26,414 nt of DNA from Escherichia coli (GCF_003334815.1 NZ_QOWO01000047.1); one strand, 5' to 3'. Counted from the first letter of the stretch, positions 12,001 to 15,000 are shown. Made by a program: the numbers.

Positions 12001-15000
12001 TGCCGTCAGCGACTGTTACAAGCCATTAAGCTGGCAACAAGCTTTCGACGAAATTGGCGCACGCCTTCAAAGCTATAGTGATCCCAATCAGGTTGAATTC
12101 TATACTTCGGGCCGCACTTCCAATGAAGCTGCCTTTCTTTATCAGCTTTTTGCCCGTGAATACGGGAGCAATAACTTTCCCGACTGCTCCAACATGTGCC
12201 ATGAACCGACAAGCGTGGGTTTGGCAGCGAGTATCGGTGTAGGTAAAGGGACCGTGTTGCTGGAAGACTTTGAGAAGTGCGATTTAGTCATTTGCATTGG
12301 GCATAACCCTGGTACAAACCACCCTCGCATGCTGACTTCGTTGCGCGCTTTAGTGAAACGGGGAGCGAAAATGATCGCCATCAATCCTCTACAGGAACGT
12401 GGCCTGGAGCGATTTACCGCACCGCAAAACCCGTTTGAAATGCTGACGAACTCTGAGACTCAGTTGGCCAGTGCCTACTATAACGTGCGCATTGGTGGCG
12501 ATATGGCGTTGCTCAAGGGGATGATGCGCCTGTTAATTGAGCGCGATGATGCTGCAAGCGCCGCAGGTCGGCCTTCATTGCTTGATGACGAGTTTATTCA
12601 AACGCATACCGTCGGCTTTGACGAGCTACGCCGTGACGTTCTCAATTCCGAGTGGAAAGATATCGAACGTATTTCTGGACTAAGTCAGACACAAATCGCC
12701 GAACTGGCTGACGCATATGCCGCTGCCGAACGCACCATTATCTGTTACGGAATGGGGATCACTCAGCACGAACATGGTACCCAGAACGTACAGCAACTGG
12801 TCAATCTGCTGTTGATGAAAGGTAACATTGGCAAGCCTGGTGCGGGTATCTGCCCACTACGTGGACACTCTAATGTACAGGGCGACCGAACCGTCGGTAT
12901 CACCGAGAAACCGTCTGCAGAGTTTCTGGCTCGTCTGGGTGAGCGCTATGGCTTCACCCCACCTCATGCACCTGGACATGCTGCAATTGCCAGCATGCAA
13001 GCAATATGTACGGGGCAGGCTCGAGCATTGATCTGCATGGGGGGCAATTTTGCGCTGGCAATGCCAGATCGGGAAGCGAGCGCTGTACCGTTAACGCAAT
13101 TAGATTTGGCGGTACACGTAGCCACTAAGCTTAACCGCTCTCATCTGTTGACCGCACGGCATAGCTATATTCTGCCGGTCCTGGGACGTAGCGAGATTGA
13201 CATGCAAAAAAACGGTGCGCAGGCGGTAACCGTTGAGGATTCAATGTCGATGATTCATGCCTCGCGTGGCGTGTTAAAACCCGCCGGTGTAATGCTGAAA
13301 TCAGAGTGTGCAGTGGTCGCGGGAATCGCGCAGGCAGCACTACCCCAGAGCGTGGTAGCCTGGGAGTATCTGGTGGAAGATTATGATCGCATTCGCAATG
13401 ACATTGAAGCTGTGCTGCCAGAGTTCGCCGACTATAACCAGCGCATCCGTCATCCCGGTGGTTTTCACCTGATAAATGCAGCTGCTGAAAGGCGCTGGAT
13501 GACGCCGTCAGGTAAGGCTAATTTCATTACCAGCAAAGGGCTGTTAGAAGATCCCTCTTCAGCGTTTAACAGTAAGCTGGTCATGGCGACAGTACGCAGC
13601 CACGATCAGTACAACACGACGATTTATGGTATGGATGATCGCTATCGAGGGGTATTCGGTCAACGAGATGTGGTCTTTATGAGTGCTAAACAAGCTAAAA
13701 TTTGCCGTGTAAAAAACGGCGAAAGAGTTAATCTTATTGCGCTTACGCCAGACGGTAAGCGCAGCTCACGCCGCATGGATAGATTAAAAGTGGTCATTTA
13801 CCCTATGGCTGACCGCTCACTGGTGACCTATTTTCCAGAATCGAATCACATGCTAACACTTGATAACCACGATCCATTAAGTGGCATTCCTGGCTATAAA
13901 AGTATTCCGGTTGAATTAGAACCATCAAATTAATGCCTCTTCTCATTTCTTCTGCTGTCATCCGCACAGCAGAAGAATTCCTCATTGACTATTATTTCGC
14001 AATTTGCTCACATGGATTAAATTAAACTACATACTATAAGATATAAACTTCTGCCTACAGCTGTAAGAAACTCCGCTCAGTACTGAAGCACCAGTCCTAT
14101 TTCCTCTTTTCTCCAGCCTGTTATATTAAGCATACTGATTAACGATTTTTAACGTTATCCGCTAAATAAACATATTTGAAATGCATGCGACCACAGTGAA
14201 AAACAAAATCACGCAAAGAGACAACTATAAAGAAATCATGTCTGCAATTGTGGTTGTCTAATTACTGACACTTACGTTGATAGCCATTTTTTCGGCAATT
14301 GATCAGCTGAGTATTTCAGAAATGGGTCGCATTGCAAGAGATCTTACACATTTCATTATCAATAGTTTGCAAGGCTGAAAACAAACAGCAAATTATAAAT
14401 ATGAAATGTTAAAAAAGTATCGATAAAAACTTTATTGTTTTAAGGAGATAAAATGTCGCTCGTTTGTTCTGTTATATTTATTCATCATGCCTTCAACGCT
14501 AACATTTTAGATAAAGATTACGCCTTCTCTGACGGCGAGATCCTGATGGTAGATAACGCTGTTCGTACGCATTTTGAACCTTATGAGCGGCATTTTAAAG
14601 AGATCGGATTTACTGAAAATACCATTAAAAAATATCTACAATGCACTAACATCCAGACAGTGACGGTGCCTGTTCCTGCGAAGTTTTTACGTGCTTCAAA
14701 TGTACCGACTGGATTGCTTAATGAAATGATTGCTTATCTCAACTCGGAAGAACGCAATCATCATAATTTTTCAGAACTTTTGCTTTTTTCTTGCCTGTCT
14801 ATTTTTGCCGCATGCAAAGGTTTCATTACACTATTAACTAACGGTGTGCTATCCGTTTCTGGGAAAGTGAGAAATATTGTCAACATGAAGCTGGCGCACC
14901 CATGGAAGCTGAAAGATATTTGTGACTGCCTGTACATCAGTGAAAGCCTGTTGAAGAAAAAACTTAAGCAAGAGCAAACGACATTCTCACAGATTCTTTT

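Follow-up and report, generated by a model that had tools for sequence, protein, structure and literature searches.

Does an Escherichia coli strain that carries a nonsense codon in safA retain an intact EvgA operator in front of safA-ydeO, and would transcription from this operator still arrive at ydeO? The question arises from a stretch of 26,414 nucleotides of E. coli DNA (GCF_003334815.1, NZ_QOWO01000047.1), referred to in the following as the window and used for all positions given here. An initial annotation of this DNA had placed an EvgA-box module at 14045-14100 upstream of safA-ydeO, matching a module upstream of ydeP. It had further expected that EvgA-driven transcription passes the nonsense codon and reaches ydeO, and that the SafA product is truncated.

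By RefSeq annotation and NCBIfam, the content of the window is the ydeQ-ydeP-safA-ydeO-ydeN-ydeM region of E. coli on the + strand. The sequence is very close to that of K-12: four positions differ from MG1655 over 6.6 kb, and within 13900-14500 the sole difference is position 14260, with 13900-14259 being base-for-base K-12. The 56-nt segment 14045-14100 recurs without change in 2,083 complete genomes of E. coli, O157:H7 included, and the 151-bp safA promoter was found in 5,372 out of 5,426 complete genomes. An Rfam search of 11000-15500 returned zero family matches. The features discussed are compiled in Table 1.

Table 1. Features of the ydeP-safA-ydeO region, in positions of the window.
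Feature	Position	Strand	Description
Counterpart EvgA box 5' of ydeP	11393-11410		AGCCTACACCTGTAAGAA; followed by AGTCTT (11434-11439) and TG-T-TAATTT (11460-11468)
ydeP	11654-13933	+	NCBIfam match to YdeP
Stem-loop	13947-13977	+	Directly 3' of the ydeP stop codon, between ydeP and the safA promoter; RNA fold -17.5 kcal/mol, z -4.65
TTC of the 21-mer initially annotated	14049-14051		Outside the conserved element
EvgA box, safA-ydeO promoter	14052-14069		18-bp imperfect inverted repeat TGCCTACA-GC-TGTAAGAA
Spacer common to the ydeP promoter	14070-14092	+	ACTCCGC (14070-14076), TGAAG (14084-14088); ungapped against 11411-11433; largely kept in L010
AGTCCT (ARTCYT element)	14093-14098	+	At offset 41 from the box start, near -41 to -36; kept in L010
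Predicted extended -10, TG-T-TATATT	14119-14127	+	Aligns with TG-T-TAATTT (11460-11468)
Predicted transcription start (A)	14134	+	Inferred solely from the -10, 7 nt after it; places the box centre at about -73.5
TGATTAACGATTTTTAA	14136-14152	+	Direct repeat with 11-bp period, located in the presumed safA leader; tentatively likened to a PhoP box
safA, inactivated	14181-14378	+	TTA changed to TAA (14260); codon 27, now a stop, at 14260-14262
ydeO Shine-Dalgarno, AAGGAG	14442-14447	+	Start codon 5 nt further on; 74 nt past the regular safA stop
ydeO, intact	14453-15214	+	AraC-family regulator; NCBIfam NF007407 YdeO with 605.7 bits (cut-off 348)

The stem-loop that follows ydeP has a 12-bp stem (TTCTTCTGCTGT/ACAGCAGAAGAA) which is invariant across the E. 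coli lineages compared. Without a T-run it is ruled out as a canonical intrinsic terminator. In L010, a divergent Escherichia described below, the loop is very nearly the reverse complement of the one in the window (CATCCGC versus ACGGATG), as if it had been flipped between the arms.

The EvgA box upstream of safA-ydeO

The 21-mer TTCTGCCTACAGCTGTAAGAA, which had been reported as the box, is present at 14049-14069 exactly as claimed. The location can thus be kept, whereas the extent has to be revised: the unit is the 18-mer TGCCTACAGCTGTAAGAA at 14052-14069, since the match to the consensus spans these positions and the leading TTC varies between lineages. Several other E. coli lineages carry CTC at 14049-14051 and L010 has a different sequence again, with GCCTACA-NN-TGTAAGAAACTCCG being retained where the TTC varies. 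The box lies 111 nt 5' of the safA ATG and is self-complementary at 14 of its 18 positions. It agrees with the inverted repeat TTCYTACA-NN-TGTARGAA except for one mismatch; the left half-site is imperfect (TGCCTACA compared to TTCYTACA).

With up to two mismatches, the consensus TTCYTACANNTGTARGAA has two matches in the window, at 14052-14069 (one mismatch) and at 11393-11410 (two mismatches), where 0.02 are expected by chance. Allowing three mismatches gives three matches compared to 0.36 expected. The consensus was cross-checked by scanning the surroundings of evgAS and yegR in K-12 (35 kb). There, at up to two mismatches, it was found only in the emrK-evgA spacer and 5' of frc, yfdX and yegR; emrK/evgA, frc, yfdX and yegR are the other published direct targets of EvgA. 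The yfdX box of K-12 is adjoined by a further match with three mismatches. The EvgA motif as applied here is self-consistent.

The source of the consensus is the work of Masuda and Church from 2003 (Mol Microbiol 48:699), which reportedly described an 18-bp inverted repeat 5' of the operons directly regulated by EvgA. In gel shifts EvgA is said to have bound these repeats, and mutation of those in front of ydeP and of b1500 (safA)-ydeO reportedly lowered induction. The site at 14052-14069 is what we take to be the K-12 EvgA-binding inverted repeat upstream of b1500 (safA)-ydeO of that work.

Annotation and NCBIfam place the box upstream of an operon for which activation by EvgA is described in K-12. 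EvgA is reported to bind the safA-ydeO promoter directly (PMC9496106), and safA-ydeO is described as a node under EvgA control, from which one branch leads via YdeO to GadE and the other via SafA to PhoQ/PhoP (PMC5706723). Consensus match, identity with K-12, the literature on K-12 and a geometry in common with other EvgA promoters (see below) all support the EvgA-box module that had been proposed for this position. Judged by its sequence, 14052-14069 is the already known EvgA operator of safA-ydeO in its wild-type form.

A safA nonsense allele in front of an intact ydeO

The nonsense codon in safA is real: K-12 has T at position 14260, and codon 27 reads TAA here. SafA is truncated as had been expected, stopping after 26 residues within the hydrophobic segment. 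The same allele is found in strain 52F4 (calf, Switzerland), where RefSeq lists safA as a pseudogene ('internal stop'). As the genome of 52F4 departs from the window at two further positions, the allele is carried by two different sequences and is therefore unlikely to be a sequencing error. It is nevertheless a rare variant, with the exact 61-mer containing the TAA occurring in 1 of 5,426 complete genomes.

The intact open reading frame of 65 codons, which comprises a transmembrane segment and a PhoQ-binding periplasmic C-terminal region, is thus missing in this strain. Candidates for an in-frame restart after the stop are limited to TTG at 14277 and ATG at 14322, neither of them with a Shine-Dalgarno sequence. 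The C-terminus of SafA is periplasmic and binds PhoQ (PMC9496106); because this PhoQ-binding and -activating region is lost, the truncated protein should be null. In K-12, deletion of safA abolishes the acid activation of a PhoP reporter, and inducible acid resistance is not reduced (PMC5706723). For the strain investigated here, a single-base null of safA is predicted to uncouple EvgS/EvgA from PhoQ/PhoP. The K-12 work (PMC5706723) suggests that such an uncoupling abolishes the activation of PhoQ by mild acid and spares inducible acid resistance.

Another natural disruption of the node was observed in strain SCPM-O-B-7615 (NZ_CP144926.1). There, an IS1A insertion at the 3' end of safA, a gene listed with 180 nt instead of 198, parts ydeO from its EvgA-dependent promoter.

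The product of ydeO is identical to that of K-12 in 252 of 253 residues, the difference being L147. This residue (14892) is located just before the helix-turn-helix domain and is Leu in the window, in eight other lineages and in L010, and Pro in K-12. L147 was considered as a sign of operon decay and rejected, since it is the common state and the P147 of K-12 is the exception.

In one rival reading, promoter and box work but the premature stop is polar: on RNA that is free of ribosomes from 14263 onward, Rho termination or RNase decay would set in before ydeO, so that the output of YdeO would be substantially cut and both branches of the node weakened. In line with this, the safA stop lengthens the ribosome-free RNA before ydeO from 74 to 190 nt, and the rarity of the allele means that an intact ydeO tells little on its expression. 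Natural losses of the whole node are also known, for example in strain MP1 (PMC5706723), as is the IS1 insertion between safA and ydeO in SCPM-O-B-7615. The composition of the exposed RNA, however, does not fit. The 190 untranslated nucleotides contain 13.7% C and 16.8% G, with no 78-nt window in which C clearly exceeds G, and such a C-poor RNA should be a poor loading site for Rho, unlike a typical one. A scan of 13900-14500 for terminator-like hairpins found none. In addition, ydeO has a strong, independent Shine-Dalgarno sequence, and because this AAGGAG lies 74 nt past the normal safA stop, translation of ydeO is uncoupled from that of safA. Loss of SafA should also relieve the PhoP-mediated negative feedback on the safA promoter, which would act against a reduced output.

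With an exposed RNA that is poor in C and lacks terminator-like hairpins, and with a ribosome-binding site belonging to an intact ydeO, strong Rho polarity is not predicted, though the mRNA may be destabilised. We consider a substantial loss of YdeO by this route unlikely. It is plausible that EvgA-driven transcription would reach ydeO in this strain.

Promoter geometry, regulon register and conservation

The initial annotation had also pointed to the same downstream pattern at ydeP, and this is borne out by the alignment. With an offset of 2659 bp, the regions upstream of ydeP and safA can be aligned gap-free, starting at the box and continuing past the -10. On the 3' side of the box, 43 of the following 71 positions are identical. 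When every other offset on either strand of the window was used as a null, this value came to 18.0 ± 3.7 and peaked at 33. Common to both regions are A-N-TCCGC directly after the box, TGAAG (14084-14088), AGTCYTATTT (from 14093) and the extended -10, as well as an element of the TTAACGAT type after a shift of 36 nt. Within the ydeP box, position 2 (11394) varies: the window and K-12 have AGCCTACA (AGCC...), and seven other lineages have ATCCTACA (ATCC), which is nearer to the consensus.

Six EvgA-dependent promoters of K-12 (safA, ydeP, yegR, emrK, frc and yfdX) were aligned by their boxes. At exactly offset 41 from the box start, ARTCYT is found in safA, ydeP, yegR and emrK, with a background of 6.8e-4 per position, and is replaced by TCTCTGATT in frc and yfdX. 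All six promoters show a -10-like hexamer at offsets 69-74, that of safA being located at offset 70. The safA promoter thereby has the box-to-core spacing of the regulon, a yardstick devised in this analysis and not a published definition. Its extended -10 is invariant in the E. coli lineages compared, and TATATT is retained in L010. By a simple consensus scan of 13900-14500, no sigma-70-like site and no consensus -35 were found; this is expected for an activator-dependent promoter of the extended -10 type, although it lends the predicted promoter no positive support. The fixed geometry between box and promoter across the regulon could help to predict further EvgA sites.

The ARTCYT element may serve as a contact for RNA polymerase or as a secondary, weak half-site for EvgA. 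Its TCCTA core resembles TTCCTACA. Half-sites with at least 6 of 8 matches number zero in safA and ydeP at offsets 18-48, and GTCCTATT at offset 42 matches at 5 of 8 positions by eye. The palindrome TCAGTACTGA (14077-14086) was considered as a second EvgA dimer site, centred 21 bp downstream, and set aside for want of support, being out of register in ydeP and a poor match to the half-sites.

For the comparison between lineages, nine E. coli lineages were picked across the identity range, and L010 was added as a divergent Escherichia. In the nine lineages, the box and the larger part of the promoter module are invariant, and variation of the box across these and L010 is confined to position 1 and the 2-bp spacer. 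In L010, identity to the window amounts to 65% in the ydeP-safA spacer, 89% in the box and 80% from the box as far as the -10, with the sequence directly 5' of the safA box being scrambled. In this comparison, the box is conserved beyond the flanking non-coding DNA.

L010 itself (NZ_JAATUR010000028.1) is labelled E. coli and is about 84% identical to the window across ydeP-safA-ydeO, with both EvgA modules kept. It is probably a cryptic Escherichia lineage. Its safA comprises 62 codons, and its BLAST alignment to the window has no counterpart of ydeN and most of ydeM (about 15340-18480).

A cross-species scan of contigs for CCTACANNTGTAAGAAANTCCG required exact matches and missed the main E. 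coli representative itself. It gave four loci: L012, L013, the divergent L010 and a Desulfosporosinus contig (L011). The last bears no similarity to the window, in line with the roughly 2 matches that 19 fixed bases should give by chance in 298 Gb. The contigs L012 (MAG 'Candidatus Nanosynbacter') and L013 (UMGS1713) are 98-99% identical to this E. coli locus; such E. coli-like contigs in assemblies of unrelated organisms are most likely due to contamination or mis-binning.

In principle, the site could chiefly be used by a regulator other than EvgA, be it YdeO in autoregulation, PhoP as a repressor or a LuxR-type protein such as GadE or RcsB. PhoP has been reported to lower the activity of the safA promoter, and feedback of both YdeO and PhoP on this promoter is described (bioRxiv 10.64898/2026.05.06.723403). 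The YdeO box, however, is an inverted repeat of ATTTCA, which 14052-14069 is not, and ChIP-chip gave seven YdeO sites, none of them at safA (PMC4222967). A PhoP box takes the form of a direct repeat, and the sequence resembling one in this promoter lies elsewhere, at 14136-14152. The box moreover fits the motif found upstream of other EvgA targets, and we regard a primary role for another regulator as very improbable.

As to the PhoP-like repeat, its counterpart in strain eco-241 is a perfect TGATTAACGA/TGATTAACGT repeat, and the related TGTTTAACGAT lies upstream of ydeP (11513-11523). One may speculate that the repeat is linked to the reported repression of the safA promoter by PhoP.

Its short length and a left arm off the consensus might suggest that the palindrome at 14052-14069 arose by chance or is a remnant, with no regulatory role here. 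This is hardly credible in view of the 0.02 matches expected, the conservation across lineages while the flanks diverge, the identical register with ydeP and other EvgA promoters, and a sequence that is the same as that of the K-12 promoter reported to bind EvgA.

Proposed model and comparison with known systems

The reading we prefer remains that of an EvgA operator. A phosphorylated dimer of EvgA, a response regulator of the NarL/FixJ type, would bind the 18-bp repeat at 14052-14069. From about -73.5 it would activate a weak sigma-70 promoter that has no -35 and depends on the extended -10 TGnTATATT, in a manner that we infer to be class-I-like. Transcription would start near 14134 and cover safA-ydeO. 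The promoters of ydeP and safA would be close paralogues, with box, ARTCYT and extended -10 in identical register. Due to the TAA at codon 27, the branch from EvgA via SafA to PhoQ/PhoP is predicted to be dead. The branch from EvgA via YdeO to GadE should still be served through the own ribosome-binding site of ydeO, presumably at undiminished expression. As a whole, this model of an EvgA operator that drives safA-ydeO from a wild-type promoter, with the SafA branch dead and the YdeO branch served, appears highly probable to us. For annotation, it means that a K-12-like E. coli (phylogroup A-type) carries an ordinary operator that has been well studied. Next to this, the rare nonsense allele of safA and the fixed geometry of the promoters are of modest weight.

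Two bolder proposals can be put forward together, and we offer the pair tentatively, as possible and somewhat doubtful. First, the allele may represent a natural separation of functions: EvgS/EvgA would still drive acid resistance by YdeO and GadE, possibly more strongly because the SafA-PhoP feedback is lost, and the activation of PhoQ/PhoP by acid would be abolished. Second, the further fixed element of EvgA promoters, ARTCYT or TCTCTGATT at 41 nt, may act as a secondary half-site for EvgA or as a contact that RNA polymerase requires, with the ydeP and safA promoters being duplicates of one cassette of about 95 bp.

Compared to the safA-ydeO operator of K-12, the locus is the same and the sequence identical over 13900-14259; this genome differs by the downstream TAA at codon 27 of safA. 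E. coli MP1 (PMC5706723) provides another case in which the Evg network is naturally cut at this locus. MP1 lacks 13 kb with both safA and ydeO, whereas a single base removes only SafA here.

Within the regulon, the ydeP promoter is the closest match. Its leader is about 130 nt longer than that of safA, and the TTAACGAT-type element occurs there once more, shifted by 36 nt. The promoters of emrK/evgA, frc, yfdX and yegR all share with safA the 18-bp box (0-2 mismatches) and the -10-like hexamer at 69-74. Beyond these elements, emrK, frc, yfdX and yegR have 22-30 of 71 identities with safA and no extended similarity. Because such similarity is absent from the other EvgA promoters, those of ydeP and safA look like duplicates of one cassette.

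Outside the regulon, the closest studied relative of EvgA is BvgA of Bordetella. Promoters activated by BvgA resemble the one described here, with a NarL/FixJ-type regulator, a high-affinity inverted repeat far 5' and a poor -35. They are filled by further low-affinity dimers down to the -35, with secondary half-sites spaced by about 21-22 bp, whereas the stretch from the safA box to ARTCYT shows only a weak resemblance to half-sites.
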